Shown: piece after piece, positions 6,403 through 31,994 of the stretch
Layout of the letters: each line of letters opens with the position of its first letter
Numbering within the stretch: the stretch's first letter is position 1
Source of the DNA: Candidatus Krumholzibacteriia bacterium
GTDB taxonomy: Bacteria > Krumholzibacteriota > Krumholzibacteriia > LZORAL124-64-63
DNA length: 64,000 nucleotides
Direction of reading: 5' to 3'
Assembly (NCBI GenBank): GCA_963825035.1
Contig: CAWGRT010000022.1
Span: 196,117-260,116, forward strand
Position numbers and translations under genes: made by a program
Notes under the pieces: model-generated
What the model was told of the DNA's origin: nothing
The model's database searches: none
What the model saw: the letters and a program-made list of their open reading frames with translations, nothing else

Positions 6403-9249
6403 TCAGCGCACCACGACGAACTTGCCCACGAAGTCGCCGAAGCGGTTGTCGTCCGACTGGACAGAGTACAGGTAGACCCCGCTGACGATCTCCTGGGCGT
6501 TGCGGCTCATCAGGTTCCAACTCGCGGCGCCCACGCCGCCGGTGCCGTCGTGCTGCAGCTCGCGCACCAGATCCCCCGCCACCGTGTAGATGCGGATGGT
6601 GTTGCGGGCCGCCGGCAGGTTGGCGAAGACCACGCGCACACCGGTCGGATCGTCGCCGACGGGGTCCATCTGCTGGAACTCGCGCAGGGCGTCGCGGGTG
6701 GCCGGGTTGGGGTAGACGTAGATGTTGGCGCCCCGGCGGGACCGCTCCTCGGCGGTCTGGGCCGCCGCCGCCGGCGTGCCCCAGGTGAAGGACGTGCCCG
6801 GGTTGCCCGCCAGCCCGGGCCCCTGGGGCGTCAGGGCATCGGGCGTGTCCGCCCCCGCGGGCAGCAGGTGGTCCGTGGCCGTCACCGCGTAGAAGTACAG
6901 GAACCCGTTGTGGACGTCCCGGTCCAGGTACTCGTAGTAGGTGGTGCTCCGCTTGGCCACCACGTCGGGATCGTCCGGATCGGCCGGCCGCGCGGCCACG
7001 GCGAAGAAGGTGTCCAGCACGTCCGGTTCGGTCTCCCAGGGCAGGAGCGACAGGTACGCCGGGTCGGGCCGGCCGTCGGAGTCCCGCAGCTGCGGACTCT
7101 CCCGCAACAGGCCGCGGGTGTCGGCGTCCACGATCGCCTGCATCGCCGCCTCCAGTCCGGCGTAGGCAGGATCGTCGAGCACCCGCGGCCGATACCGGAT
7201 CTCCTCCAGGCCGGTGTTGCGGCCCAGGGGCATGGTGTCCGTCACCGCGACGCCGCCGCGGACCGACGTGGTGACGTAGTCGTTCACCAGGTCGTATTCC
7301 GCGACCAGCTGCCAGAGATCGCTCTCGGGCCCGCCCTCCAGGGACGAGCCGAAGGGCCGCGCCCAATTGTCGGCCCGCCACACCCGGTAGGACTCGAAGT
7401 CGATCTTCTGCAGACGCACGTCCGGACTGTGCTCCGAGCGGTCGTCCCAGAACACGTGCATGGCCGCGTCCCGCGGCCACAGGCGCACCCCCGGCGGCGG
7501 CGGCGCCATGCCCACCAACCAGTGGATCTGGGTGTCGAGGCCGTTGATGCCGGTGCAGCCCACGGTGCTGGTGGCCGTGCTGTCGCCGCAGGTCCAGACG
7601 TGGTCGCGGAAGTCGGCGGTGGTGCACTCCCGGCCCACGGACCGCGCGCACTCGAAGCAGTTGTCCAGGTTGAACATGGCGCAGACCTTGCCGTCGTGGT
7701 TGAACAGGTCGTCGTCCTGCAGGCCCGGCTGGTTCAGGGCCCACAGGGGGTCGAGGCAGGTGGTGTCCATGTAGTCGGGGATGAAGGTGTTGAAGGGATT
7801 GTCGGGCCCGTCATCGCCGAAGTCCTCGCGGCAGAGCATGGTCTCGCGTCCCCGCTGGCCCGGGTCGAACACCCGCCCCGAGTACGTCGCCACCGACCCC
7901 AGGTCGTTGGCCCACGCCCCGTGCCAGGTGAGCCAGGCCTCCATGCAGTTGCCCAGCAGCCCCGTCATGGCTTCGGGGTCGCCCCGCCCGTGGCCGCAGA
8001 CCATCGCCACCTGGAACGTCAGGCTCTCGTCGGGTGCCAGACTCCTGAAGGGTCCCGCCGAGACCAGCATGCGGAAGTCCGCCGGCCGGTTGGCGTCGGC
8101 ATCCCAATCCTCGGGCGCGGCCGACATCAGCTGGTAGAGCTGCGCGTCGTTGGTCGGGTCTCCCCCCTGCTCGAAGGCCGCGTTGCCCTGGAAGCTCTGG
8201 AAGGTGCGCAGGCCCACGCTCTGGGGTGCCGTGCGGCCGGTGGGGTCGATGTCGTGGCCCAGAAAGAGGATGCCGAAGTAGTCGTCCACCCGCCCCGACT
8301 CGGCGGCGTCGTAGGTGTAGCCCACCTCGATCGGCACCCAGCCGCCGTCGGGTGAGCGCACCATGCCGCGGTAGGATCCCGTCAGGTCGTCGGTGTAGTA
8401 GCTGTTCTCGGAGCGGGGGCCCACGTCGCCGTCGGCGTAGATGCCGATGTAGACCTGCTCCAGCTCCACCACGCCCACGTTGGTGACCGTGTAGTCGAAA
8501 CCGATGAAGTCGTCGGCCTGGTCCGTGTCCCAGGCCACCGCCGTCTGCACCACCTTCAGGTTCATGGGGGTGTGGTCGGGGAAGCGCTCCTGGGCGTAGA
8601 GCGTGTTGTCGTACATGGTGCACACCATCATCTGGGTGCCGATCTGCCCGAAGTCCTCGTCGATGCGGCCGTCCCCGTCGTCGTCGTGGCCGTCGAGGAC
8701 CTCCTCGTCCACGCGGCCGTCGTCGTCGTCGTCTGGGTTGGGCATGGGCGCGCGGGCGCCGCCGGCGGCGGTGTTGCCGGGCGGCCGGATGATCTGCTGG
8801 TTGCGCGCCTCGTAAAGGGTGGCTTCCAGCTCGTCCCGGGGCCGCCACTCGCTGGCGAGGCCGCCCTGGGAGACCACCGTCTCGCCCAGCATGCGCGCCC
8901 CCACCAGCAGACGCGCGGTGTAGAGGTGCTCGATGCCGGAACCGGCCGGCCACTGGCAGGACGGTTTGTCGGCGTACGCGGCCGGGCTGCCGGGCGCCGA
9001 TCCGATGAGGCCCCAGTTGGTGAGGTGCATCTGCACCTGGCCCACGTTCATGATGTAGCTGCCGTCGGTGATGTGGATCCCCGCGCCGTGGTAGGCGCCT
9101 TCGTCCGGCGGCGGCTCCTGCCAGGCGCGGACGGGCGCGGCCGCGGCGGTGGCGAGCACGGCCAGGACGACGATGACGGCGCGGGAATCGGGAAGACGGG
9201 ACGACGGGCGGGCGGCGCGACGGCGCGGCCGGAACTGACCACGGACCAC
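6403..9249 (-). CDS. Large secreted protein with acidic Ca-binding-like repeat, Cys-rich region and FlgD-Ig/T9SS-type C-terminal domain
   Basis: GTG at 9249 is preceded by GAGGAAG and followed by a signal peptide (AVIVVLAVLATAAAAPVRA). It has an Asp-rich stretch (NPDDDDDGRVDEEVLDGHDDDGDGRIDEDF). The C-terminus (YVYPNP...GVYLYSVQ...) is typical of sorting domains. Confidence 0.85.
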   Translation of the reverse strand: MVRGQFRPRRRAARPSSRLPDSRAVIVVLAVLATAAAAPVRAWQEPPPDEGAYHGAGIHITDGSYIMNVGQVQMHLTNWGLIGSAPGSPAAYADKPSCQWPAGSGIEHLYTARLLVGARMLGETVVSQGGLASEWRPRDELEATLYEARNQQIIRPPGNTAAGGARAPMPNPDDDDDGRVDEEVLDGHDDDGDGRIDEDFGQIGTQMMVCTMYDNTLYAQERFPDHTPMNLKVVQTAVAWDTDQADDFIGFDYTVTNVGVVELEQVYIGIYADGDVGPRSENSYYTDDLTGSYRGMVRSPDGGWVPIEVGYTYDAAESGRVDDYFGILFLGHDIDPTGRTAPQSVGLRTFQSFQGNAAFEQGGDPTNDAQLYQLMSAAPEDWDADANRPADFRMLVSAGPFRSLAPDESLTFQVAMVCGHGRGDPEAMTGLLGNCMEAWLTWHGAWANDLGSVATYSGRVFDPGQRGRETMLCREDFGDDGPDNPFNTFIPDYMDTTCLDPLWALNQPGLQDDDLFNHDGKVCAMFNLDNCFECARSVGRECTTADFRDHVWTCGDSTATSTVGCTGINGLDTQIHWLVGMAPPPPGVRLWPRDAAMHVFWDDRSEHSPDVRLQKIDFESYRVWRADNWARPFGSSLEGGPESDLWQLVAEYDLVNDYVTTSVRGGVAVTDTMPLGRNTGLEEIRYRPRVLDDPAYAGLEAAMQAIVDADTRGLLRESPQLRDSDGRPDPAYLSLLPWETEPDVLDTFFAVAARPADPDDPDVVAKRSTTYYEYLDRDVHNGFLYFYAVTATDHLLPAGADTPDALTPQGPGLAGNPGTSFTWGTPAAAAQTAEERSRRGANIYVYPNPATRDALREFQQMDPVGDDPTGVRVVFANLPAARNTIRIYTVAGDLVRELQHDGTGGVGAASWNLMSRNAQEIVSGVYLYSVQSDDNRFGDFVGKFVVVR

Positions 9250-19606: not shown

Positions 19607-21022
19607 ATGAGCACCAGCCGCATCGAGGATCTCAATCTCGACTACCAGGCGAAGTACGGCTTCGCCGACCCTGAAGAGTACCTCATGAAGGCCCCCAAGG
19701 GCCTGAGTCACGAGGTCGTGGAGATGATCTCGCGGTACAAGAACGAGCCCGACTGGATGCGCGAGTACCGGCACAAGGCCCTGGACATCTTCGAGAGCAA
19801 GCCCATGCCCCGCTGGGCCAACAGCGAGCTGCTGGATGCCATCGACTTCGCCGACATCCACTACTACCTGAAGTCCTCGGCCGGCTCGGCCAACGACTGG
19901 GACGACGTGCCCGAGAACATCAAGAACACCTTCGACCGCCTGGGCATCCCCGAGGCCGAGCAGAAGTTCCTGGCCGGGGTGACCGCCCAGTACGAGTCCG
20001 AGGTGGTCTACCACAGCATGCACGAGGCCGTCGCCAAGCAGGGCGTCCTGTTCACGGACATGGACACGGCCCTGCGCGAGCATCCGGAGATCGTCAAGAA
20101 GTACTGGGCCACGGTGATCCCCGCCCAGGACAACAAGTTCTCCGCGCTCAACAGCGCGGTGTGGTCGGGCGGTTCGTTCATCTACGTGCCCAAGAACACC
20201 AAGGTGGAGATCCCCCTGCAGGCCTACTTCCGGATCAACGCCGAGAACATGGGCCAGTTCGAGCGCACCCTGATCATCGCGGACGAGGGCAGCTCGGTGC
20301 ACTACATCGAGGGCTGCACGGCGCCGGTCTACTCCACCAACAGCCTGCACTCGGCGGTGGTCGAACTGGTGGCGCTCAAGGGCGCGCGCATCCGCTACAC
20401 GACCATCCAGAACTGGTCCAACAACATCTACAACCTGGTGACCAAGCGCGCCCACGCCCACGAGGACGCGGTGGTCGAGTGGGTCGACGGCAACATCGGC
20501 TCGAAGCTGACCATGAAGTACCCGGCGGTCTACCTGCTGGGCGAACGGGCCCACGGCGAGGTCCTGTCCATCGCCTACGCGGGCGACGGCCAGCACCAGG
20601 ACGCCGGCGCCAAGATGGTGCACGCGGCGGCCAACACCTCGAGCCGCATCATCAGCAAGTCCATCTCCAAGGGCACCGGGCGCACCAGCTACCGGGGCCT
20701 GGTGAAGGTGCTCAAGGGCAAGGACCACTGCCGCTCCAACGTGGAGTGCGACGCCCTGCTGATCGGCGACCAGGCCCGCAGCGACACCTTCCCCACCATG
20801 GAGATCGGCGAGCAGGACGTGCGCATGGAACACGAGGCGCGCGTCTCGAAACTGGCGGACGAGCAGCTGTTCTACCTGCAGAGCCGCGGCATCGATCCGG
20901 AGCAGGCGCGCCTGATGATCGTCAACGGCTTCATCGAGCCGTTCGTGCGCGAGCTGCCCATGGAGTACGCGGTCGAGCTGAACCGGCTGATCGCCCTGGA
21001 GATGGAGGGTTCCGTTGGTTGA
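19607..21022 (+). CDS. sufB: Fe-S cluster assembly scaffold SufB
   Basis: Intact 471 aa ORF that is highly SufB-like throughout ([21 protein letters not shown]...). Confidence 0.95.
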
Positions 21023-22301
21023 TCTGGCGCTCATGAGCATCGAAGGCAAGCCCGCCCTGGACACCGGGGACGTCCGCCGGCTGTCGGCCGAGCTGGGCGA
21101 GAGTCCCGCCGGCCTGGCCTGGCGCCTGGCGGCGCTGGATGACTACCGCGGCATGCCCCTGCCGTCCCGGGTGCGCCACCTGTGGCGCTACACCGACCCC
21201 ATGCACCTGATGCCGGGCGAGGCCCTGCCGGCGTCCATGCCGCCGCGCGATCTGACCGCCTGCGAGCTGCCGACGGTCGAGCCGGCGGTGCTGCTGGTGC
21301 CCGGCCGCGCGCCCGAACTGAACGAGGCGGCCCGCACCGCGGGCCTGCACATCGCCCCCCTGCTGCACGACGACGGGGACGCGGAGCTGCTCGGGACGGC
21401 GTCCCCCAGCGCCGCAGGCTTCTTCGCGTCCCTGAACTCGGCCGCCTGGAACGCCGGCGTGGCCGTCTTCGTGCCCGCGGGCAAGGCGCTGGAGCAGCCC
21501 CTGCGGGTGCTGGTGCCGGCGTTCGCCGAGACCACCCTGCCCCGGGTGCTGGTGGTCGCCGGCCGCGGCGCCGAGGTGACCGTGGTCGAGGAGCACTTCG
21601 ACGGCCGCGAGGGCCATCGCGTGATCGGCGTGACCGAACTGCTGGTGGGCGAGGGCGCCCACGTGCGCCACGTGCTGGTGGAACGCTGGGAAGCCGGCGT
21701 CCACGGGTTCCTGGCGGTCAAGGCGCGCGTCGAGCGGGACGGCTCCTACCTGGGCGTGAACGCCTCCCTGGGCGGGGACCGCGTCAAGCTGGAGCTGGGT
21801 GCCGACCTGGTGGGCCGCGGGGCCGGCAGCGAGCTGGTCGGCGTGGTGCTCGGCGGCGGCACGCAGCGCTTCGACCACCACACGAGCCACCGCCACGACG
21901 CCCCGGACACCACCAGCAACATCGACTTCAAGGTGGCCCTGACCGAGAAGTCGCGCTCGTCCTACACGGGACTGATCCGCATCGAGGAGCACGCGGTCCG
22001 CAGCGAGGCCTTCCAGGAGAACCGCAACCTGCTGCTCTCGGACGGCGCCCGCGCCGACACGATCCCCGAGCTGGAGATCCTCACCGACGACGTGTCCTGC
22101 AGCCACGGCGCCACCGCCGCGCCCATCGACCCCGAGCAGATCTTCTACCTGCAGAGCCGGGGCATCGCCCGCGACGAGGCCGTGCGCCTGGTGGTGCGCG
22201 GGTTCGTCGAGACCACCCTGACCCGGGTGCCGGCGTCGGTGCGCCAGGACCTCGAGTCCCTGGTCACCGCGCGCCTCTCCGTGCTCGGCGAGGGTGTGTG
22301 A
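21015..22301 (+). CDS. sufD: Fe-S cluster assembly protein SufD
   Basis: 428 aa SufB/D-family C-terminal beta-helix. TTG at 21015 lies 6 nt after GGAGGG and overlaps the sufB stop. An alternative ATG is at 21033. Confidence 0.85.
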
Positions 22302-23551
22302 TGGATCCCCGGTACGCAGCCGCGGACCGGGCGGCGGCCGAGGGGCTGCTGCGGGAGCGCTTTCCCATCCTCGGGCGGACGGTCAACGGCCGCCCGCTGG
22401 TCTATCTCGATTCGGCCGCCACCACCCAGAAGCCGGATGCGGTGATCGACGCCGAGGCCGACTACTACCGCCGCTCCAACGCCAACGTCCACCGCGGCCT
22501 GCACACCCTGGGCGACGAGGCCACGCACCTGTACGAGGGCTGCCGCGCGGCGGTGGCCGACTGGCTGGCGGTCGCGCCGGCGCAGGTGACGATCCAGCGC
22601 TCGGCCACCGCGGCCATCAACCTGGTGGCCCGGGGCTGGGAACAGAACCTGGCCGAGGGCGACGCGATCCTGGTGACCGAGATGGAGCACCACGCCAACT
22701 TCGTGCCCTGGCAGATGCTGGCGGCCAGGAAGAAGCTGGAACTGCGCGTGCTGCCGGTGACCGACGGCGGCGAACTGGACCTGGCCCGCCTGGACGACCT
22801 GCTGGACGCCAAGGTCAAGGTCGTGGCGGTGAACCACATCTCCAACGTGCTGGGCACGGTCAACCCGGTGGCGCGGATCTGCGCCCGCGCCCGCGACCTG
22901 GGCGCGGTCAGCCTGGTGGACGCCGCCCAGTCGGTGGGCCACCGCCCCCTGACCTTCGCCGACACCGGCGCCGACCTGATGGTCTTCAGCGCCCACAAAT
23001 GCTACGGCCCCATGGGCCTGGGCTTCCTGGTGGGCCGCCCCGAGACGCTGGCCCGGCTCGAGCCCATGGAGGGCGGCGGCGAGATGATCGAGTGGGTGCG
23101 CCTGGAGGGCACCACCTGGGCCGAGGTGCCCCACCGCTTCGAGGCGGGCACCCCCAACGTGGGGGCGGCGGCGGCCTTCCCCGCGGCCATCGCCCTGCTC
23201 CGGGAGATCGGGCTGGCGAACGTGCGGGCCCACGAGGAGGACCTGACCGGCTACGCCCTGGACACACTGGCGGCCATCGACGGTCTGGTTATCTTCGGTC
23301 CCGGGGACCCCGCGCGCCGCGGCGGCCTGGTGAGCTTCCACGACCCGCAGGTCCACCCCCACGACCTGAGCACGATCCTCGACCAGCTGGGGATCGCCGT
23401 CAGGGCGGGCCACCATTGCGCCCAGCCCCTGCACCGGCGGCTCGGCGTGGTCGCGACGACCCGGGCCTCCTTCGGCGTCTACACCACGCGGGGGGAGATC
23501 GACGCCCTGGCCGCCGGCATCCTGGAAGCCCGGAAGGTGTTCGCGCTGTGA
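22301..23551 (+). CDS. sufS: Cysteine desulfurase SufS (class V aminotransferase)
   Basis: The ATG overlaps the sufD stop (TGATG). Motifs YLDSAATTQKP, SAHKCYGP (PLP lysine) and RAGHHCAQP (active-site Cys) are present. Confidence 0.93.
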   Translation: MDPRYAAADRAAAEGLLRERFPILGRTVNGRPLVYLDSAATTQKPDAVIDAEADYYRRSNANVHRGLHTLGDEATHLYEGCRAAVADWLAVAPAQVTIQRSATAAINLVARGWEQNLAEGDAILVTEMEHHANFVPWQMLAARKKLELRVLPVTDGGELDLARLDDLLDAKVKVVAVNHISNVLGTVNPVARICARARDLGAVSLVDAAQSVGHRPLTFADTGADLMVFSAHKCYGPMGLGFLVGRPETLARLEPMEGGGEMIEWVRLEGTTWAEVPHRFEAGTPNVGAAAAFPAAIALLREIGLANVRAHEEDLTGYALDTLAAIDGLVIFGPGDPARRGGLVSFHDPQVHPHDLSTILDQLGIAVRAGHHCAQPLHRRLGVVATTRASFGVYTTRGEIDALAAGILEARKVFAL

Positions 23552-24069
23552 GCCTCGGACCCATCGACGACCTTTACCGCGAGGTGATCCTCGACCACCA
23601 TCGCCACCCCCGCGGCCGCGAGCCGCTGGCCGACCCGGACGTGACCGCCGAGGGGCGCAACCCCTCGTGCGGCGACGAGGTCACCCTGCAGCTCAACTTC
23701 GACGGCGACCGCATCAGCGCCGTGGGCGTGGACGCCCGCGGCTGCGCCATCAGCACCAGCAGCGGCTCCATGCTGGCCGACCTCATCGAGGGCATGACCG
23801 TCGACGAGGCCGAGCAGGTGGCCGAGTCCTTCCGCGAGGTGCTGCACGGCGGCGAGTTCCCCGCCGACGTGGACCTGGGCGACCTGGAGGCCCTGCAGGG
23901 GGTGCAGAAGTTCCCGGTGCGCGTCAAGTGCGCCATCCTGCCCTGGGTGACCATGCTCGACGCCATCATCGCCCACAAGCGGGGGCGCGCGCCGCGGCCG
24001 GTCTCCACCGAGGGCGTGCGCGACGACGGCGCCCCCATGGACGTGAACGTCAAGGAGAGGGATCGATGA
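23548..24069 (+). CDS. sufU: SUF-type Fe-S scaffold/sulfur acceptor SufU (NifU N-terminal family)
   Basis: GTGA overlap with sufS. Motifs NPSCGDE, GCAISTSS and KCAILPW are present. Confidence 0.88.
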   Translation: MSLGPIDDLYREVILDHHRHPRGREPLADPDVTAEGRNPSCGDEVTLQLNFDGDRISAVGVDARGCAISTSSGSMLADLIEGMTVDEAEQVAESFREVLHGGEFPADVDLGDLEALQGVQKFPVRVKCAILPWVTMLDAIIAHKRGRAPRPVSTEGVRDDGAPMDVNVKERDR

Positions 24070-24386
24070 ACGAGGGCAAGCCGACCATGAACGACGTGAT
24101 GGACTACCTCAAGCCGGTCATCGACCCGGAGCTGAACATCTCCATCGTCGATCTGGGCCTGGTGCGCGGCATCACCATCGACGACGCCGGCAAGGTGGAC
24201 ATCGACCTGACCCTGACCAGCCCCATGTGCCCCATGGGGCCGCAGATCATGGCCGCGACCACCCGCGCGGCCAAGCAGACCCCGGGCGTGAGCGAAGCCC
24301 ACGTCGACCTGGTCTTCTCCCCGCCTTGGGATCCGCGGACGGACGCCACGGAGGACGGCAAGGCGGCTCTCGGCATCTGGGACTGA
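24066..24386 (+). CDS. sufT: DUF59/MIP18-family Fe-S assembly protein (SufT-like)
   Basis: ATGA overlap with sufU. 106 aa with the DPELNISIVDLGLV and TSPMCP motifs. Confidence 0.8.
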   Translation: MNEGKPTMNDVMDYLKPVIDPELNISIVDLGLVRGITIDDAGKVDIDLTLTSPMCPMGPQIMAATTRAAKQTPGVSEAHVDLVFSPPWDPRTDATEDGKAALGIWD

Positions 24387-24407
24387 CAGCAGCGCGGAGG
24401 GAAGACC

Positions 24408-24440
24408 GGAAGGGGCGCGGCCGGAGGCCGCGCCCCTTCC
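24408..24440. terminator. Bidirectional terminator hairpin between convergent sufT and ppk2
   Basis: 14-bp stem GGAAGGGGCGCGGC / GCCGCGCCCCTTCC with a short loop. Confidence 0.65.
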
Positions 24441-24459
24441 GCGTTCATGTCGGCGGCGT

Positions 24460-25362
24460 TCAGCCCTCGTCCTCGAGCAGCCCCCGCGCCCGGTCCAGCT
24501 CGTCCGCGCGCTCCGGGCCCGCCTCCGGGTAGTGCAGGTCCAGCCGCTCCAGCGCCTCCACCACGGCGCCCGCCACCACCAGCCGCGTGTACCACTTGTG
24601 ATCCGCCGGCACCACGTACCAGGGGGCGTGCTCGGTGGCGGTGCGCCGGATCATCTCCTCGTAGGCCGCCTGGTACGCGTCCCAGGAGGCGCGCTCGCGC
24701 ACGTCGGCGCTGGAGAACTTCCAGTGCTTGTCGGGATCGTCCAGCCGGGCGAGGAAGCGTTCCTTCTGCTCCTCCCGCGACACGTTGAGGAAGAACTTCA
24801 GGACGAGGCAGCCGTTGCGGGCCAGGTAGCGCTCGATGGCCACCATGTCCTCGCAGCGCTCGGCCCAGATGCGGTCGGTGACCAGCTCCGGCGGCAGCTT
24901 CTGCTGCGCCAGCAGGGCCTCGTGCACCCGGACCACCAGCACCTCCTCGTAGTAGCTGCGGTTGAAGATGCCGATGCGCCCCCGCTCGGGCAGGTGCTTC
25001 AGGCAGCGCCACAGGTAGTCGTGGTCCAGCTCCTCGGCCGACGGTGCCTTGAACGAGACCACCTGCACGCCCTGGGGATTGATGCCCGACATCACGTGCT
25101 TGATGGTGCCGTCCTTGCCGGCGGCGTCCAGGGCCTGGAAGACCAGCAGCACGCTCCAGCGGTCCTGGGCGTACAGCTTCGCCTGCTGGTCGGCCAGCCG
25201 GGCGATGCCGTGCTTCAGGTCGCCCTTGGCCTTCTTCTTGTCGCCGGGGTCGAAGTCGCCGGTGTCACCGGGGTCGTGGTCGGCGAGGCGGAAGCCCGCA
25301 CCGCCGGTCACGCGGTACGGGGCGACGAGGCGGGTGAGCTGGTCACGATCGAAACTGGGCAT
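24460..25362 (-). CDS. Polyphosphate kinase 2 family protein (polyphosphate:nucleotide phosphotransferase)
   Basis: Intact 300 aa ORF. PPK2 motifs are FQALDAAGKDGTIKHV (Walker A-like), FNRSYYEEV and the lid region. Confidence 0.9.
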   Translation of the reverse strand: MPSFDRDQLTRLVAPYRVTGGAGFRLADHDPGDTGDFDPGDKKKAKGDLKHGIARLADQQAKLYAQDRWSVLLVFQALDAAGKDGTIKHVMSGINPQGVQVVSFKAPSAEELDHDYLWRCLKHLPERGRIGIFNRSYYEEVLVVRVHEALLAQQKLPPELVTDRIWAERCEDMVAIERYLARNGCLVLKFFLNVSREEQKERFLARLDDPDKHWKFSSADVRERASWDAYQAAYEEMIRRTATEHAPWYVVPADHKWYTRLVVAGAVVEALERLDLHYPEAGPERADELDRARGLLEDEG

Positions 25363-25430
25363 GGGCGTCCTCCCGGGGCATGGACCGAAGATAGCACCAT
25401 CCGGTCCGACCGGCAGGACGCCCCCCTCGC

Positions 25431-25994
25431 TCAGTCGTCGTCGCCCTTCTCCAGGGCCTGCAGCAGGCCGCTGCCCTGGACCGCGGGCGCCGCGACGCCC
25501 GGCTCGGCGGGCATCAGGGCGTGCACCCCGAGGCCGTGGACCAGCCGCCCGCCCTGGTGGGCGGTGTTGGCCAGCAGGACGGACCCGAACAGGTAGCAGA
25601 CCAGGTAGGCCCCGCCGGCCAACACGGTGATGCGGCGGCCGGGCGTGCGCTTCAGAAGCGCCGGCCCCAGCAGCAGCACCGCGAAGGTCAGGGTCAGCAG
25701 GGTGAACACGGTGCGGGTGGTTTCGGCCAGCTCCTCGTGCTGCTCGAGGGCCGCGCGGACGGCCGGCGTCCGGGTGGCCAGCTCGCCGGCGGCCTCGCCC
25801 GTGCCCACGGCCACCCAGGCGGCCACGGTGCCCAGGACCATCACCGCCAGGGCCGCGTTCAGGAAACCGCGGCCGGCGCGGGGCAGGGCCAGGCCCATCA
25901 GCACCAGCAGCGGCGCGGTCAGCAGCAGGGCGACGGGGAAGTGGACCACCAGCGGGTGCAGGGCGTCCCAGGTCGGAAGCGGCGGCAGGCTCAT
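25431..25994 (-). CDS. DUF2231-family integral membrane protein
   Basis: It has the HPLVVHFPVALL signature, about 4 TM helices and conserved His residues. ATG at 25994 is preferred, 9 nt after AAGGAG. Confidence 0.8.
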   Translation of the reverse strand: MSLPPLPTWDALHPLVVHFPVALLLTAPLLVLMGLALPRAGRGFLNAALAVMVLGTVAAWVAVGTGEAAGELATRTPAVRAALEQHEELAETTRTVFTLLTLTFAVLLLGPALLKRTPGRRITVLAGGAYLVCYLFGSVLLANTAHQGGRLVHGLGVHALMPAEPGVAAPAVQGSGLLQALEKGDDD

Positions 25995-26080
25995 GATCAT
26001 GGTCTCCTTGGTTTCGCGGATGATGGGCGCCGGCGGTCGCACGGGGGACACGACCGCCGGCTCTCAGCGGACATGGGCTG

Positions 26081-26710
26081 TCAGCTGATCTCGATGAACT
26101 TCTCGTTCTCGGTGTAGCAGACCGGGCACTTGCTGCCGTCGAGGCCCAGCACGGTGCGGCCGCAGGTGGGGCAGACGTACAGGGTCAGGGCCTTGCCGGT
26201 CATCTTGTCCAGGGAGGCCAGGGCGTCGGTGTAGAGCTGGGCGTGGCCGGCCTCGGCCTCGGCGGCGAAGTTGAAGGAGCGCACCGCGTCCTTCACGCCC
26301 TCGGCCTTGGCCGCGGCGATGAACTCGGGATACATGGTGTCCCGCTCGTAGGACTCGCCCTCGATGGCGGCCTTCAGGTTCTCGCCGGTGGTCTTCACCG
26401 TGGGCGTGACCACGTCGGCCTTGGGCTCGGCGCCCAGGGCGCGGATGACCTCGGCGTGGTTCTCGGCGTGGATGCCCTCGGCCCGGGCCGCCGCGCGGAA
26501 GATGCTGGCCGCCTTGGTGTAGCCCTCGGCGTCGGCCTTCACGGCGAAGGCGGTGTAGCGGGCGTGGGCGTTGGACTCGCCGTTGAAGGCCTCCTGCAGG
26601 TTGGCCAGGGTCTTGCCCTCGGCGCGGGCGGTGGCCACGGTCGGGCCGATCAGGGTCAGGGCGGCCAGGGCCGCGAAGACGAGGGCGGTCAGGGTCCGGG
26701 TCGTGCGCAT
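26081..26710 (-). CDS. rbr: Rubrerythrin with N-terminal Sec-type signal peptide
   Basis: ATG at 26710 with a GGAGGA RBS and signal peptide MRTTRTLTALVFAALAALTLIGPTVATARA. It has a ferritin-like diiron domain (ExxH pairs) and a C-terminal rubredoxin-like CPTC...CPVC. Confidence 0.88.
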   Translation of the reverse strand: MRTTRTLTALVFAALAALTLIGPTVATARAEGKTLANLQEAFNGESNAHARYTAFAVKADAEGYTKAASIFRAAARAEGIHAENHAEVIRALGAEPKADVVTPTVKTTGENLKAAIEGESYERDTMYPEFIAAAKAEGVKDAVRSFNFAAEAEAGHAQLYTDALASLDKMTGKALTLYVCPTCGRTVLGLDGSKCPVCYTENEKFIEIS

Positions 26711-26800
26711 GGTGGTGTCCTCCGGGTCGGGGTTCGTGCCTGGTCCGGGCCCGCGGCGCCGTCGGGGCGGCGGGCCGATCTTTCCGTTCACGTATCCCCT

Positions 26801-26816
26801 CGCAGGCGGCGTGCCA
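26801..26816 (-). promoter_or_regulatory. Sigma-54 promoter candidate (TGGCACG-N4-CTGCG)
   Basis: The minus strand reads TTGGCACGCCGCCTGCG. The -24 element is perfect and the -12 GC is at the canonical spacing. It lies about 90 nt upstream of the rubrerythrin ATG and directly downstream of a sigma-54 activator gene. Confidence 0.6.
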
Positions 26817-26926
26817 AACGACAACTCGTTGTTTATAAACTGTTTATCTTAAATTTGGACTGCGCAACTCTTGCATACCACCGCGCAGGCGTGAAAGCCT
26901 TGCGCACCGGCCGGGCAGCCGCACGG

Positions 26927-28285
26927 TCACTCGCAGCGGTAGCGCTTGAGCTTGTAGATGAGGGTGCGGCGGCTGATGCCCAGCAGCTCGGCGGCGTGGG
27001 TGCGGTTGCCGCCTGTCTGCTCGAGGGCGCGCTCGATGGTCTCGCGCTCCAGGCGATCCAGGGGCACCACCGGCTCGGACGCGGCGCCGTTGGCGGCGGC
27101 CGCCGGCGCCGACGCCGTTGCGGCCCCGCCTGCGCCCCGCCGCACCGCCGGCGGCAGGTGCTCGGGCAGGATGACGTCGGTGCGGGCCAGCAGCCGCGCC
27201 CGCTCGACGGCGTTGGCCAGCTCGCGCACGTTGCCGGGCCAGGGGTAGTTCTGCAGGGCGCGCGCCGCGGCCGGCGACAGGCGCTTGGCCTGCCCCGTCC
27301 CCTGCAGGAAGGCGCGGGCCAGGGGCAGCACGTCCTCGGGGCGTTCGCGCAGGGGCGGCAGCTCCAGGGCGATGACGTTCAGGCGATGGAACAGGTCCTC
27401 GCGGAAGCGCCCCTCGCGCACGGCCGCCCCCAGGTCGCGGTTGGTGGCCGCCACCAGGCGCACATCCACCTGCTGTTCGCCCGTGCCGCCGACCGGCGTG
27501 AAGCGTCCGGTCTCCAGCACCCGCAACAGGGCCGGCTGCAGTTCCAGGGGCATGTCCCCGATCTCGTCCAGGAAGAGGGTGCCGCCGTCGGCCTCGCCGA
27601 AGCGGCCCACCCGCCGGCCGGTGGCGCCGGTGAACGAGCCCGCCTCGTGGCCGAACAACTCGCTGGCGATGAGACTCTCCGGCAGGGCGGCGCAGTTGAC
27701 CGCCACCAGGGGCTTGCGGGCCCGCCGGCTGTGGCGGTGGAGGAACTGGGCCAGCACCTCCTTGCCGCTGCCGCTCTCGCCGGTCAGCAGCACGGTGGCC
27801 TCGCTGGGCGCCACCCGCCAGGCATCGTGGAGCACGGCGCGCAGGGCCGGGCTCTCGGCCACGATGCCCGTCAGGGCCTCGGCGGGCAGGCCGTCGGCGA
27901 TCGTCTCGCCCCGGAACCCGACGATGTCGCCGCAGGCGGCCACCAGCTCGTCCAGGTCCACGGGTTTGCCCAGGTAGTCCACCGCGCCCAGCTTGAGGGC
28001 CGTCACGGCCTCGGGCACGTTGGGGAAGGCGGTGACCAGGAGGAAGGGCAGGTCAGGGCAGCAGTCCCGGGCCTGGCGCAGCAGCTCCAGGCCGTCCACG
28101 CCGGGCATGCGCACGTCGCTGACCACCAGGGCCGGGCGCTCGCGGCCCAGCATGACCAGGGCCACGCCGCCGTCGGGGGCCTCGACCACGTCGAAGCCGG
28201 CCTCGCCCAGGGTGGCGGCGTAGAGCCCGCGGTGGGCCGCGTCGTCGTCCACCACCAGCACGCGGGGGCCGGGTCGGGCGGTCAT
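26927..28285 (-). CDS. NtrC-family sigma-54-dependent response regulator (REC - AAA+ - HTH)
   Basis: REC domain (LVVDDD...SDVRMPG), GESGSGKE Walker A, GSFTGA loop and a C-terminal Fis-type HTH. Confidence 0.93.
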   Translation of the reverse strand: MTARPGPRVLVVDDDAAHRGLYAATLGEAGFDVVEAPDGGVALVMLGRERPALVVSDVRMPGVDGLELLRQARDCCPDLPFLLVTAFPNVPEAVTALKLGAVDYLGKPVDLDELVAACGDIVGFRGETIADGLPAEALTGIVAESPALRAVLHDAWRVAPSEATVLLTGESGSGKEVLAQFLHRHSRRARKPLVAVNCAALPESLIASELFGHEAGSFTGATGRRVGRFGEADGGTLFLDEIGDMPLELQPALLRVLETGRFTPVGGTGEQQVDVRLVAATNRDLGAAVREGRFREDLFHRLNVIALELPPLRERPEDVLPLARAFLQGTGQAKRLSPAAARALQNYPWPGNVRELANAVERARLLARTDVILPEHLPPAVRRGAGGAATASAPAAAANGAASEPVVPLDRLERETIERALEQTGGNRTHAAELLGISRRTLIYKLKRYRCE

Positions 28286-29685
28286 GGGGTCTCCTCCGCG
28301 GGGACGGGCTCGGGGGCCGGCACCAGGCCGTCGATGGCCACCTCGGTGCCGCGGCCGCCGGACCCGGCGGGCGAACGCAGGGCGACGGTCCAGCCGTGAT
28401 CCTCCACCATCCGCCGCACGATGGCCAGCCCCAGGCCGTGGCCGTCGTCGCGGCCGGTGACGTAGGGCTTGAAGACCTCGTCCCGCAGTTCGGGCGCCAC
28501 GCCGGCGCCCTCGTCGCGCACCGCCAGCCGCACCCCGCCCACGTCCCGGGTCACGGAGACGGTCACGGCGGTGCCGGCGGGCGAGGCCTGCAGGCTGTTG
28601 AGCAGCAGGTTCACCAGGATCTGCTCCACCTGCTCGGCGTCCGCCAGCACGCGCGCGTCGTCACCGTCACAGTCCAGGCGGACACCCGCCTCGGCGAAGT
28701 CGACCGCCAGCAGCCCGCACACCCGCCGCGCCAGAGGCATCAGGTCCACGGGACGGGGCTGCGCCGAGCGCGGCCGCGCGTAGGCCAGGAACTCGCCCAG
28801 GCGGGCCGTCGCGGTGTCGGCCTGCTCCATGATGGTGGCGGCCGAGTCGCGGGCGGCCGGCGGCACGCCGTCGTCGCCGGCGATGCGCTGGGCCAGGCCG
28901 CGCACCAGCCCCAGGGGATTCTTGGTCTCGTGGGCCAGCCCCCGGGCGGCATGGCCCAGTTCGGCCAGGTGTTCGGCCCGCACCCGCGCCTCACCCAGGC
29001 GGCCCCGCAGCTCGCGATTGCGGATGGACAGGGTCCAGGCCAGGGAGAGACCCGCCAGGCAGAGCACGCCCACGGCCAGGATGGCGTTCAGACGCTTGGT
29101 GGCCTCGCCCACGTGGCGGACGTAGCCACCGGCCAGCATGCCCACGGCCAGGAGCTGGGGACGATCCCCCAGATCGAGGTCGGCCTCGGGGTCGGCGGCG
29201 CCGAAGTCGGGGTAGCGGTGTCGGGAGGGCAAGGGCGAGTCCTGCAGATGCACTTCCTCCCAGTGGACGTACTGGCCGTCCCGCAGCACGCCACCGTGGT
29301 CACCGACGGGGTCCAGCCAGCCGGGCACGTCGCCCGCGGTCAAGGTGGTGCCGTCGCCGGCGCTCAGGGAGACGAAGGTCACCTCCGTGCTGGCCACCAC
29401 ATTCTCCAGGATCATGCGGGTCTGGGGCATGTCCAGCTGGCCCCGGCGCACCTGGGCCTGGATGCTGGCCTCCACCGCGTCCGCGACGCCATGCGTGGCC
29501 TGCCGCGCCTCACGCAGGCCGAGGGCCCGGCTGCGCCCCCGTTCCGCCAGGTTCCAGGCCACCAGCAGGGCCAGCAACACCAGCCCCACGGCGACCGGCT
29601 GATGATACCAGCGCACCAGGTGGACGACGCGCTGCGGCCGGACCTTCGTCCCATCGCCGGATCCGTCGTCTGCCGGGTTCTTCAT
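28282..29685 (-). CDS. Sensor histidine kinase (periplasmic loop, HisKA, HATPase_c)
   Basis: H-box LAHETKNPL plus N/G boxes (LLNSLQA, DEGAGV, GHGLGLAIV). ATGA overlap with the RR gene. ATG at 29685 lies after GGGAGAA; an alternative start is at 29703. Confidence 0.88.
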   Translation of the reverse strand: MKNPADDGSGDGTKVRPQRVVHLVRWYHQPVAVGLVLLALLVAWNLAERGRSRALGLREARQATHGVADAVEASIQAQVRRGQLDMPQTRMILENVVASTEVTFVSLSAGDGTTLTAGDVPGWLDPVGDHGGVLRDGQYVHWEEVHLQDSPLPSRHRYPDFGAADPEADLDLGDRPQLLAVGMLAGGYVRHVGEATKRLNAILAVGVLCLAGLSLAWTLSIRNRELRGRLGEARVRAEHLAELGHAARGLAHETKNPLGLVRGLAQRIAGDDGVPPAARDSAATIMEQADTATARLGEFLAYARPRSAQPRPVDLMPLARRVCGLLAVDFAEAGVRLDCDGDDARVLADAEQVEQILVNLLLNSLQASPAGTAVTVSVTRDVGGVRLAVRDEGAGVAPELRDEVFKPYVTGRDDGHGLGLAIVRRMVEDHGWTVALRSPAGSGGRGTEVAIDGLVPAPEPVPAEETP

Positions 29686-29723
29686 GCTTGGTTCTCCCGT
29701 CATGCCCTTGGGTGGTGGCGGCT

Positions 29724-29733
29724 GGGGGGGGGG
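29724..29733. repeat. G10 homopolymer in the divergent HK / transposase-like intergenic region
   Basis: Ten consecutive G residues, read directly from the sequence. Confidence 0.9.
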
Positions 29734-29751
29734 CGCCGGCGCGATCATAAC

Positions 29752-30912
29752 ATGGGGGAAACCGTGACCGATCCGCAACCTGTCGGTTGTGCCCCGCAGA
29801 TTGTGTCCGGCCCGGTCCCTGCGACCGGGCCGGGTATGTTCACCCCCAAACAGCAACATCCAGCCTGGCGCCCACCCTTCTGCCCCAACCCCAACTGCCC
29901 ATACCACAGGCAGTTGACCGCCGGCTGGCGCTACAAGAAGTCCGGATTCTTCCGGAGACAGGCCCGCCCCCACCGTATCCAGCGGTTCACATGCCTCCAC
30001 TGCAGGAAGTCTTTCAGCACCCAGACTTTCTCCACCACCTACTGGCAGCGGAAGCCCGAACTCGACGCGCTGATCCTCACCAAGACCGTCGGCTGCATGG
30101 CCAACCGCCAGCTTGCGCGGGACCTGGGCGTCGCGCCGGCGACCATCGACCGGCGGCTGTCACGGCTCGGCCGTCACTGCATGCACTTGCACGCCTTGCA
30201 CATGCAGTCGGCGCCGCCGGCGTCGCAGATCGTGATCGACGGCTTCGTCACCTTCGAGCGCTCCCAGTACCAGCCGTTCCATCACCACGTGGCCGTCGAG
30301 AAGGACACCGACTTCTTCCTCTACTTCACCGACAGCGAGGTGCGGCGCAGCGGCACGATGACTCCCGCGCAGAAGAGACGTCGCGCCGAGCTCGAGCAGT
30401 TGTATGGCCGTCCCGATCCGCAGGCGGTGCGCAAGGACGTGCGCGAGTTGCTGGAGGTCGTGATCGGTCGCCAACCGGAGGTGACGATCTACAGCGACGA
30501 CCACAAGGCCTATCTCCGGGCGATGCGGGGTCTGGCGCCGCATATCCATCACCAGGTGACGTCGAGCAAGGAGCGGCGTGACAACCGCAACCCGTTGTGG
30601 GAGGTGAACCTGTTGGATCTGCTGATCCGGCACTGCAGCGCCAACCACAAGCGGGAGACGATCGCCTGGTCGAAGCGACGGCAGTGCAGCGCCGAGCGGC
30701 TGGCGATCTTTCTGGTGTGGCGGAACTACATGAAGGGTCGGCGGGAGAAGCAGCGGGGGAGTCCGACGCCGGCGATGGCGCGGGGGATGGTGGATCGGCC
30801 GCTGACTGTTGGCGATGTGCTGGCGGAGAGGATCTTCCCCGACCACGTCCCGTTGCCGCCGCGGTGGACGGAGTATCGCGACCGGGCCGTCGCCACCCGT
30901 TGCGTTGGTTGA
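29752..30912 (+). CDS. IS1/IS1595-like DDE transposase homolog with N-terminal zinc ribbon (element ends not identified)
   Basis: It has CPNPNCPYH...CLHCRKSF, an HTH-like segment (ANRQLARDLGVAPATIDRRL) and DDE-like landmarks (IVIDGF, YSDDHKAY, NPLWEVNLLDLLIRH). An alternative ATG is at 29836. The listed 838 aa ORF is over-extended antisense to the HK. Confidence 0.55.
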   Translation: MGETVTDPQPVGCAPQIVSGPVPATGPGMFTPKQQHPAWRPPFCPNPNCPYHRQLTAGWRYKKSGFFRRQARPHRIQRFTCLHCRKSFSTQTFSTTYWQRKPELDALILTKTVGCMANRQLARDLGVAPATIDRRLSRLGRHCMHLHALHMQSAPPASQIVIDGFVTFERSQYQPFHHHVAVEKDTDFFLYFTDSEVRRSGTMTPAQKRRRAELEQLYGRPDPQAVRKDVRELLEVVIGRQPEVTIYSDDHKAYLRAMRGLAPHIHHQVTSSKERRDNRNPLWEVNLLDLLIRHCSANHKRETIAWSKRRQCSAERLAIFLVWRNYMKGRREKQRGSPTPAMARGMVDRPLTVGDVLAERIFPDHVPLPPRWTEYRDRAVATRCVG

Positions 30913-31052: not shown

Positions 31053-31994
31053 CTACCGGTACGTCGCCTTCACGTCGCTGAACGACCGGTTCACCGTAGG
31101 CACCGCCCCACCCGTGGACGCGAAGTCCAGGGTATAGGTGCCGCAGGAGTCCGCGCCCCAGGAGTCGACCACCAGGTAGACGACCATGTCGGAGCCCGAG
31201 TCGTTGGCGTAGGCCAGGGTCTCGGTCTCGCCGTCGAGGGTGTTGTCGGCGTAGGCCAGGCAGTTGAAGGGGCCGGTGCACGAGTCCAGCAGCCACAGGG
31301 CGCCGTCGGCCACGGCGTAGGTGACGTCGGCGGTGAAGCTGCTGCCGGCCGGCAGGAGGATCTCGTAGTAGGCCTCCAGGCCGTCCTCGGCGAAGTCGCC
31401 GCAGTCCAGGGACGAGAAGTTGTTGATGCCGCCGCAGGTGTCGCCCGTGAAGTGGGTGCCGTACACGTCCTCGACCGCGCTGCAGTAGGGGTCGGGCTCC
31501 ACCGGCGTCACGGTGTTGATCTCGAAGGTGAACGGGCAGCCGGCACCGCCGAAACCGTCCACCACGAAGTAGAAGTCCCCGGACACGGGCACGTTGGTCA
31601 CCACGCCCGCATCGACGACGATCAGGCAGCCGAGGTCCTCGTCGCACTGGTCGAGCACGGCCAGGTCCAGGTCACACCCGCTGCCGGTGAGGGTCCCCTC
31701 GAACATGGCGGGCGTGTCCAGGTACAGGTGGTAGACCACCTCGCCGCCGGACTCGTCCCAGGTGGAGCAGCCGTACATGGACACGTTGTCGGGCAGACCC
31801 GTGTTGTCCCCGTAGTAGATGTTGTCCAAGGTGATCTCGATGGCACCCGAGCAGTCGAGGGTACCCTTGTCGGGCGTGCCGGCCTGCTTGGTCGGCGGCT
31901 GCTTCGCGATGCTGCGGAACGGGCCGCCATCGGCGGCGAAGGCGGTGCCGGCCACGAGGCTCAGCGCGATAAGGACGATGATCATTTTCTTCAT
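31053..31994 (-). CDS. Secreted Cys-rich protein with two tandem PPC-like (pre-peptidase C-terminal-like) beta domains
   Basis: Signal peptide MKKMIIVLIALSLVAGTAFA. Two internally similar halves each end in a ...VVDGFGGAGCPFTFEI / ...VVDSWGADSCGTYTLDF type motif. 14 Cys in total. Confidence 0.7.
   Translation of the reverse strand: MKKMIIVLIALSLVAGTAFAADGGPFRSIAKQPPTKQAGTPDKGTLDCSGAIEITLDNIYYGDNTGLPDNVSMYGCSTWDESGGEVVYHLYLDTPAMFEGTLTGSGCDLDLAVLDQCDEDLGCLIVVDAGVVTNVPVSGDFYFVVDGFGGAGCPFTFEINTVTPVEPDPYCSAVEDVYGTHFTGDTCGGINNFSSLDCGDFAEDGLEAYYEILLPAGSSFTADVTYAVADGALWLLDSCTGPFNCLAYADNTLDGETETLAYANDSGSDMVVYLVVDSWGADSCGTYTLDFASTGGAVPTVNRSFSDVKATYR

Follow-up and report, generated by a model that had tools for sequence, protein, structure and literature searches.

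We analyzed a gene cluster around a rubrerythrin that carries a predicted signal peptide. The cluster lies in a stretch of 64,000 nucleotides (nt) from a Candidatus Krumholzibacteriia bacterium (assembly GCA_963825035.1, contig CAWGRT010000022.1), which we call the window. Five genes follow each other on the minus strand between positions 24460 and 29685: a histidine kinase, an NtrC-type regulator, the rubrerythrin, a membrane protein of the DUF2231 family and a PPK2-family polyphosphate kinase. A first-pass annotation, made from the letters of the window, had described this gene order together with a sigma-54 promoter in front of the rubrerythrin gene. These observations are confirmed here, and the promoter coordinates and distances that it gave are correct.

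The nearest relatives of the locus are Acidobacteriota/Holophagae metagenome-assembled genomes, at 66–75% identity, and a metagenome contig (L086) at about 87–90%. One database protein (P0121) is 100% identical to the DUF2231 protein of the window. A scan of species-representative genomes provided 80 loci, and the promoter pattern was counted over 83 related loci. Gene content was counted with phmmer, comparing the proteins of the window to open reading frames (ORFs) in all six frames.

A rubrerythrin with a signal peptide

The rubrerythrin gene (26081–26710, minus strand) encodes a precursor of 209 amino acids (aa), with a PF02915 score of 95 bits versus a cut-off of 22.8. The signal peptide is encoded by 26621–26710. 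It had been described as a Sec-type signal peptide, MRTTRTLTALVFAALAALTLIGPTVATARA/EG, and a rule-based check agrees: the n-region is basic (R2 and R5), a hydrophobic core follows (hydropathy of residues 7–25 is 2.08) and the cleavage site reads A-R-A/E, which predicts a mature protein that begins with EGKTL. There is no twin-arginine motif. A start codon further downstream would remove the signal peptide. The sole in-frame candidate is a GTG at 26638, which has no ribosome-binding site. The ATG at 26710 is preceded at a distance of 7 nt by the ribosome-binding site GGAGGA (26718–26723, minus strand), which is invariant in nine aligned spacers.

The extension is a property of the family. A database search with the rubrerythrin yielded 4509 matches at E ≤ 1e-10, and we examined the N-termini of the 120 closest. 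All 120 carry a hydrophobic N-terminal extension, with a median of 36 residues before helix A. A lipobox is found in 22 of them and a Tat-like motif in one. We conclude from these patterns that the signal peptide is real and that the rubrerythrin is predicted to be exported from the cytoplasm.

Behind the signal peptide the protein is built from a diiron four-helix bundle and a C-terminal Cys4 rubredoxin-like domain (CxxC...CxxC). Residues 36–206 align with the full length of Pyrococcus furiosus rubrerythrin 1NNQ (E = 5e-32). Hence, the signal extension lies outside the fold. In an alignment of 32 diverse sequences the diiron ligands (E45, E78, H81, E119, E122, E153 and H156) are invariant. 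So are C180, C183 and C195 of the Cys4 domain, and C198 is nearly invariant. The rubrerythrin thus looks catalytically intact. Solely from these active-site residues we infer a role in peroxide or oxygen defence. The protein falls below the NCBIfam equivalog cut-offs for rubrerythrin (NF045767, 103.6 versus 200) and nigerythrin (NF045783, 128.7 versus 340). Judged by these scores, it belongs to a distinct subfamily.

In one locus (L036) the gene for the exported-type rubrerythrin is present as a tandem duplicate (6539–7207 and 7962–8633), with a regulator fragment between the copies.

The kinase and the regulator

The sensor histidine kinase gene (28282–29685, minus strand; alternative ATG at 29703) encodes HisKA and HATPase_c domains according to Pfam. 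Hydropathy indicates two transmembrane segments (residues ~29–47 and ~201–219) around a periplasmic domain of about 150 aa. This domain has conserved motifs that contain His and has no Cys in the sequences that keep the domain after trimming (it is lost from 3 of the 5 relatives shown). The best NCBIfam match of the kinase is ZraS, over the full length, with 160 bits versus a cut-off of 479.

The stop codon of the kinase gene and the ATG of the regulator gene overlap in the sequence ATGA, as had been claimed. The regulator (26927–28285, minus strand) has the three parts expected of an NtrC-family enhancer-binding protein: a REC domain, an AAA+ domain with a GAFTGA-type loop (here GSFTGA) and a Fis-type helix-turn-helix (HTH) domain. 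The Pfam scores are 86.8 bits for Response_reg, 229.6 for Sigma54_activat and 65.1 for HTH_8. It stays below the NCBIfam equivalog cut-offs for NtrC, AtoC and ZraR, with ZraR among the top matches (378 versus 760 bits).

Another sigma-54 enhancer-binding protein is encoded at about 4901 of the window (minus strand); its GAFTGA loop is canonical.

The promoter and the upstream sites

The regulator and rubrerythrin genes are separated by 216 nt, and this spacer contains a sigma-54-type promoter, TTGGCACGCCGCCTGCG (26801–26817, minus strand). The GG of the −24 element is at 26814–26815 and the GC of the −12 element at 26802–26803. The core element, TGGCACGCCGCCTGC (26802–26816, minus strand), has the GG-N10-GC spacing and one mismatch to TGGCACG-N4-TTGC. 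From the promoter it is 91 nt to the rubrerythrin ATG and 110 nt back to the stop of the regulator gene, which fits the earlier figures of about 90 and 110 nt.

The match to the sigma-54 consensus is not beyond chance by itself. A TGGCACGCCGCCTGC-type site occurs once in the window, and shuffled sequences contain on average 1.97 sites per 64 kb (at least one site in 86 of 100 shuffles). On the coding strand of the 216-nt spacer only about 0.003 sites are expected. Thus it is location and conservation, rather than the match within the window, that place the putative promoter beyond chance.

Conservation is seen at several distances. The orthologous spacers of four metagenomic relatives have TGGCACGCCGCATGC (L001), TGGCACGCTAGGTGC (L003), TGGCACGAGACTTGA (L004) and AGGCACACCGTCTGC (L086) at the same position. 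Of the 83 related loci, 30 have the strict pattern TGGCA[CT]-N6-TGC in the 300 nt that precede the rubrerythrin ATG, versus 0.007 sites expected per 300 nt. Most of these sites are 67–113 nt before the ATG. They make up about half of the 57 occurrences of the strict pattern in 2.3 Mb, scanned on both strands. From the strict-pattern sites upstream of rubrerythrin genes we built a position weight matrix (PWM). When scanned with this matrix, almost every locus that has the regulator upstream shows a GG-N10-GC element, and its distance is fixed. In the Terriglobales loci, where kinase and regulator are encoded downstream, the scans find a weaker but conserved site, TTGGCCCACGCCGTGCC.

We aligned nine orthologous spacers, which share a mean column identity of 57%. 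The invariant columns form four islands: two sites that contain GCGCA, the GGCA...TG of the promoter, and the GGAGGA-N-ATG of the translation start. The GG/GC elements and the gene order are conserved in relatives; in many genera the elements have kept their position in spacers whose flanks diverge.

The two upstream islands are candidate activator sites. The centre of the distal one, TGCGCAAGGCTTTCACG (26890–26906, minus strand), lies about 108 nt ahead of the inferred transcription start, and its GCGCA core is invariant in the nine spacers. The proximal one is the dyad TATGCAAGAGTTGCGCA (26861–26877, minus strand). Its centre lies about 79 nt ahead of the same start, and it is likewise a conserved island of the alignment; it reads GTGCGCA-N5-TGCGCAC in relatives. 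The CTGCGC/GCGCAG repeats noted earlier overlap these two conserved TGCGCA-N5-TGCGCA-type dyads. Such positions, about −79 and −108 from the putative start, are usual for NtrC-family activators. More distant relatives have a more divergent regulator and a different dyad, GTTCGAA-N3/4-TTCGAAC, in two copies. Such a switch of the dyad alongside a divergent regulator is what co-evolution of regulator and site would produce.

Between the dyads and the promoter lies an AT-rich spacer (26822–26858, minus strand). It contains the palindrome GTTTATAAAC (26831–26840), where the first-pass annotation expected a bend site. The palindrome is present in the window and already absent in L086, which is 87% identical over the promoter spacer. 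It is therefore not conserved, and only the AT-richness of the stretch persists in relatives. The AT-rich spacer as a whole may be a DNA-bending region.

The first-pass annotation had linked the kinase/NtrC-type pair to a sigma-54 promoter for the exported rubrerythrin and DUF2231. The gene order, the −24/−12 elements, the dyads and the signal peptide are all conserved, which supports this part of its proposal.

Three loci (L023, L043 and L060) have no adjacent regulator, yet they have very strong sigma-54-type sites with PWM scores of 20–24. These sites lie about 385–435 nt before the NGES motif, farther upstream than in the other loci.

The membrane protein DUF2231

The DUF2231 gene (25431–25994, minus strand; alternative ATG at 26000) encodes a protein of 187 aa (PF09990, 42.2 bits versus a gathering threshold of 26.4). 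The protein had been called His-rich. It contains 6 His in 187 residues, and five of them are invariant in 50 homologues. The complete set of residues invariant in these homologues is W9, D10, H13, P14, H18, F19, P20, G66, H86, H146, G148, G149 and H153.

Hydropathy gives four hydrophobic segments. An AlphaFold2 model is a confident four-helix bundle (pLDDT 87.5, pTM 0.76) with four long helices. Basic residues number 2 and 4 in the two short loops, which lack acidic residues, and the N-terminus, the long loop at 66–95 and the acidic C-terminal tail are net negative. By the positive-inside rule, the termini and H13, H18, H86, H146 and H153 are predicted to face the periplasm. The conserved acidic residues are predicted to be periplasmic, beside the five His, and the basic loops cytoplasmic.

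Searches for relatives of DUF2231 returned little. Foldseek against the PDB with the model found generic helical bundles only (best E = 0.2). The sequence against the PDB gave noise only, with a best E of 0.032 on a transmembrane stretch of MnhG. Permissive Pfam scans of 50 members yielded only noise from transmembrane composition (for example, DUF4131 and a weak MauE). The family itself is large: 4338 clusters at 50% identity match its profile with E ≤ 0.001. We looked for fusions among the top 150 representatives and found two. P0375 (316 aa) joins DUF2231 to a C-terminal cytochrome c′-like domain that ends in CEDCH (PF01322, 24.8 bits, under the cut-off of 26.5), and P0326 combines DUF2231 with a SnoaL-like domain. 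The remaining long proteins among these representatives have acidic low-complexity tails only. Rieske-DUF2231 fusions may exist as well, but none of our arguments builds on them. The cytochrome c′-like fusion, a single case, fits a periplasmic C-terminus and a redox setting.

DUF2231 does not look like a transmembrane di-haem cytochrome b, which would have haem-ligand His in both leaflets. The invariant His are all on the predicted periplasmic side, at helix ends or in the loop, and in the PDB searches neither fold nor sequence matched a cytochrome b.

The first-pass annotation had proposed that DUF2231 supplies electrons across the membrane. Carriage across the membrane is not favoured because the five invariant His lie on one side, and the quinol pool makes it unnecessary. 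There is also no match to a solved redox membrane protein. What survives of the proposal is a possible quinol-linked donor role at the outer face, which is plausible and our best guess.

A conserved four-gene unit and its variants

The order kinase, sigma-54 regulator, signal-peptide rubrerythrin, DUF2231 is found in L001, L003, L004 and L086. Among the 80 loci, DUF2231 lies directly 3′ of the rubrerythrin gene in 72. Two loci are cut by a contig end and six are without DUF2231, four of these being cyanobacterial. The kinase/sigma-54 regulator pair is adjacent in 49 of the 80: it immediately precedes the rubrerythrin gene in 33, and in 16 it comes just after DUF2231. Most loci belong to the Acidobacteriota (Holophagae, Thermoanaerobaculia, Terriglobia and Blastocatellia); Phycisphaerae, Eisenbacteria, Hydrogenedentota and cyanobacteria are represented as well. 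Judged by gene order in these genomes, the four-gene unit is conserved across Acidobacteriota.

The unit has variants. In Terriglobales the order is rubrerythrin, DUF2231, a sortase (PF04203), a secreted protein of 262 aa, a membrane protein of 126 aa, kinase and sigma-54 regulator (L089, 8001–14066; also L029, L041, L044, L054, L056, L076 and L083–L085). In two of these loci (L041, 1573–2313; L044, 8653–9393) an ORF lies between rubrerythrin and DUF2231 that by eye looks like a cyclic-nucleotide-binding (Crp-like) regulator. Its first ~19 residues or so copy the start of DUF2231, which hints at an insertion that duplicated its target.

The cyanobacterial loci L051, L055, L070 and L080 have neither DUF2231 nor a sigma-54 regulator next to the rubrerythrin. 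Weakly matching kinase/regulator genes that are not of the sigma-54 type lie upstream (in L051 only a marginal kinase match). Where the cyanobacterial N-termini are resolved (L070 and L080), the signal peptides are of the lipoprotein type.

Downstream and flanking genes

The first-pass annotation had counted the PPK2-family polyphosphate kinase (24460–25362, minus strand; PF03976, 241 bits versus 22.3; TIGR03709, 379 versus 247.2) as a member of the operon and of the functional module. We found no PPK2 match in L001–L085, which include the close relatives L001, L003 and L004. PPK2 follows 3′ of DUF2231 in L086, the closest relative, and in no other relative locus examined. Hence we regard PPK2 as a lineage-specific neighbour rather than a member of the module; it may or may not be co-transcribed with DUF2231.

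Both spacers downstream of the rubrerythrin gene are structured. The 96-nt spacer between rubrerythrin and DUF2231 (−35.7 kcal/mol, z = −2.4) contains a GC-rich hairpin with a stem of about 12 bp (26029–26061, minus strand), which may adjust the ratio of rubrerythrin to DUF2231 expression. The 68-nt spacer between DUF2231 and PPK2 (25363–25430, minus strand; −45.5 kcal/mol, z = −3.06) has a predicted fold in which the ribosome-binding site of PPK2 is paired. It is 96% identical in L086 (2595–2661 there), above the 87% of the promoter spacer.

Behind PPK2 the first-pass annotation had placed a strong terminator. A perfect GC-rich hairpin (24407–24441; −43.4 kcal/mol, z = −4.9) does separate PPK2 from convergent suf genes, and it is very stable. 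It has no T-tract, and a terminator scan did not call it. The hairpin is probably a two-way terminator.

The suf genes (21015–24386, plus strand) encode a SufBD core, a class-V aminotransferase SufS, a NifU_N/SufU-like protein and FeS_assembly_P. This adjacency was not seen in context look-ups of the relatives L001, L003 and L004. On the other side, divergent from the kinase gene, lies a Cys-rich ORF of about 373 aa (29791–30912, plus strand) that looks like a transposase by eye. A gene farther on (31053–31994, minus strand) encodes a 313-aa protein with an N-terminal segment like a signal peptide. Neither has a Pfam match.

Relation to known systems

Rubrerythrins are regarded as enzymes of anaerobes and microaerophiles that scavenge peroxide in the cytoplasm. 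The protein described here resembles the classical rubrerythrins and nigerythrins (P. furiosus 1NNQ, Desulfovibrio vulgaris 1YUZ/1RYT) in its diiron bundle and Cys4 domain, and it keeps all the metal ligands. Unlike them, it has a 30-residue Sec signal peptide (a lipobox in some relatives) and a 13-residue loop insertion, and it is paired with a membrane protein, not with rubredoxin or NADH-linked reductases. In the literature we found no description of a periplasmic, secreted or exported rubrerythrin, and none of a kinase-regulator-rubrerythrin-DUF2231 unit. DUF2231 appears in one database paper only. Signal peptides, the periplasm and membrane partners go unmentioned in the main phylogenomic survey of rubrerythrins (PMC5114695). 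Peroxidases of the rubrerythrin family and sigma-54 circuits of the NtrC type are themselves known; what stands out is the predicted exported location of a classically cytoplasmic family.

The regulatory half is similar to ZraSR-zraP of enterobacteria. There, too, the sensor of the kinase is periplasmic, the sigma-54 activator has the REC-AAA+-HTH build, and a periplasmic effector is expressed from a sigma-54 promoter. In contrast to that system, the target here is rubrerythrin-DUF2231 instead of ZraP, and the scores are far under the equivalog cut-offs. PexR of Myxococcus xanthus, described in December 2025, is a sigma-54 activator that binds dyad repeats and controls ahpC and katB, whose products detoxify H2O2; PexR homologues in Acidobacteriota are found near rbr (PMC12754779). 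Enhancer-binding protein, sigma-54 promoters and dyad repeats are common to both systems. However, PexR is a one-component cytoplasmic protein with an N-terminal metal-binding GAF domain, whereas the present regulator carries REC and would depend on a kinase in the membrane, and its targets are predicted to be exported. In Acidobacterium capsulatum an rbr gene (ACP_1512) goes up about 13-fold as O2 falls (PMC11636273). ACP_1512 may or may not be of the exported type; our homologue search returned no named A. capsulatum protein.

For the proposed supply of electrons there are two precedents. YhjA of Escherichia coli is a membrane-anchored periplasmic peroxidase that is proposed to be fed by quinol (PMC10301912). 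The logic proposed here is the same, a periplasmic oxidoreductase fed by the membrane from the quinol pool, but YhjA has c-type haems and a single transmembrane helix, and DUF2231 shows no relation to it in sequence or fold. MsrPQ is a quinol-linked periplasmic repair system in which MsrQ is a di-haem b protein. It follows the same logic of a membrane partner, and again DUF2231 has no sequence or fold relation to MsrQ.

A proposed mechanism

We propose that the kinase senses an envelope signal via its periplasmic domain and phosphorylates the regulator. The regulator would then bind the two TGCGCA-N5-TGCGCA dyads at about −79 and −108. Across the AT-rich spacer it would activate RNA polymerase with sigma-54 at TGGCACG-N4-CTGC, and rubrerythrin and DUF2231 would be transcribed together. 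The rubrerythrin would be exported unfolded, lose its 30-residue signal peptide and acquire iron in the periplasm, where its most likely reaction is the reduction of H2O2 (possibly O2) to water. On the outer face of the membrane, DUF2231 most likely binds a cofactor through histidines, and it would pass electrons from menaquinol to the rubredoxin-like domain. Together, the two proteins would form a haem-c-independent periplasmic quinol peroxidase. We propose DUF2231 as the donor because an exported, intact rubrerythrin needs a local donor, and DUF2231 is the sole co-conserved partner and has a periplasmic cluster of His.

We give this explanation as a whole, two-component/sigma-54 control of a periplasmic quinol-linked peroxidase pair, a probability of about 0.6. 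In its regulatory part we have high confidence. The biochemical part is tentative, and we would rate its chances at somewhat less than even. In vivo sigma-54 dependence, peroxidase activity in the periplasm and the donor role of DUF2231 are what we infer from the sequences. A more far-reaching version is rather doubtful. In it, DUF2231 would represent a new type of small membrane redox protein, fed by menaquinol at the outer face of the inner membrane. With the Sec-exported rubrerythrin it would form a periplasmic quinol:H2O2 (or O2) oxidoreductase, independent of haem c, switched on through sigma-54 by a two-component system that senses the envelope, and widespread in Acidobacteriota and neighbouring phyla.

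A number of observations weigh against the proposed mechanism. The −12 element of the window promoter is CTGC, not TTGC, and in some relatives it reads TTGA or TTGT. The PWM score of the window promoter is 12.3, near the 99th percentile of the background. The dyad pattern is not enriched in the window alone (9 matches versus 7.2 expected), so the support for the dyads comes from conservation only. No RpoN box was found within the 64-kb window, so rpoN does not lie in it. Twenty-three genomes have the rubrerythrin-DUF2231 pair without an adjacent regulator, and the cyanobacterial homologues do not have an adjacent DUF2231. On the biochemical side, the PDB and Pfam searches gave no structural or sequence relative of DUF2231 whose function is known. 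We only suppose that DUF2231 binds haem, metal or quinone, and we assume that a Sec-exported diiron/FeCys4 protein can be loaded with metal in the periplasm. Our knowledge of this locus and family comes from sequences and a structure model.

Alternatively, the locus could serve iron handling. The exported rubrerythrin would then be a periplasmic Fe2+ ferroxidase or sequesterer, DUF2231 an Fe2+ channel or metallochaperone, and the ZraS-like kinase a sensor of metal. Rubrerythrins do belong to the ferritin-like superfamily (there is a match to Pfam Ferritin), and the invariant His, Asp and Glu of DUF2231, clustered on the periplasmic side, resemble a metal site as much as a haem site. Besides, ZraS, the best full-length match of the kinase, senses metal, and an apo-protein exported by Sec needs metallation outside the cytoplasm. 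We nevertheless consider iron handling unlikely. A simple ferroxidase needs no Cys4 domain for electron entry, and this domain is kept across the exported family (three of its Cys do not vary and the fourth hardly does). The kinase scores far under the ZraS cut-off, and the four-helix bundle of DUF2231 has no transporter-like fold match. Less probable still is that DUF2231 is not a redox partner at all. It would be an anchor or docking site for rubrerythrin, or an accessory in feedback to the kinase, and the electrons would come from another periplasmic carrier encoded elsewhere. A passive anchor is not expected to keep five invariant His and several invariant acidic residues at one face, and rubrerythrin and DUF2231 are adjacent in 72 of 80 loci whatever the position of kinase and regulator. 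This stands against the undetectable similarity of DUF2231 to redox membrane proteins, the 22 lipoproteins among 120 rubrerythrin homologues, which suggest that tethering matters, and the cyanobacterial homologues that do without DUF2231.

The two other alternatives concern transcription. PPK2 may be the third gene of the operon and a working part of the defence, for example, through a link between polyphosphate and oxidative stress. On the same strand, 68 nt separate it from DUF2231, the scan called no terminator in this gap, and L086 has the same arrangement with its 96%-identical spacer. The absence of PPK2 from L001–L085, close relatives included, makes us think this improbable, and separate control would agree with the strong spacer structure, in which the ribosome-binding site of PPK2 is paired. 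Finally, the sigma-54 match could be fortuitous, with a sigma-70-type promoter reading the operon and the two-component system controlling something else. About one such site per 64 kb is expected by chance, and the −12 region is imperfect. Yet the element keeps its position across many genera while the flanking spacer diverges, the promoter scan found no sigma-70-like site in 24200–30200, and a sigma-54 activator is linked in 49 of 80 genomes. A fortuitous match is thus very hard to believe.

Significance

Known control of oxidative-stress genes in bacteria runs through OxyR, PerR and, recently, PexR. The locus described here would add a two-component/sigma-54 route. Rubrerythrins predicted to be exported are abundant in Acidobacteriota of soil and sediment, almost always beside one uncharacterised membrane protein. 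The pairing gives DUF2231 a concrete partner and a function that can be tested. If the proposal is true, a function would be assigned to a DUF family of more than 4000 clusters at 50% identity, and non-haem diiron peroxidases would operate outside the cytoplasm. This may help to explain how soil bacteria cope with fluctuating oxygen.

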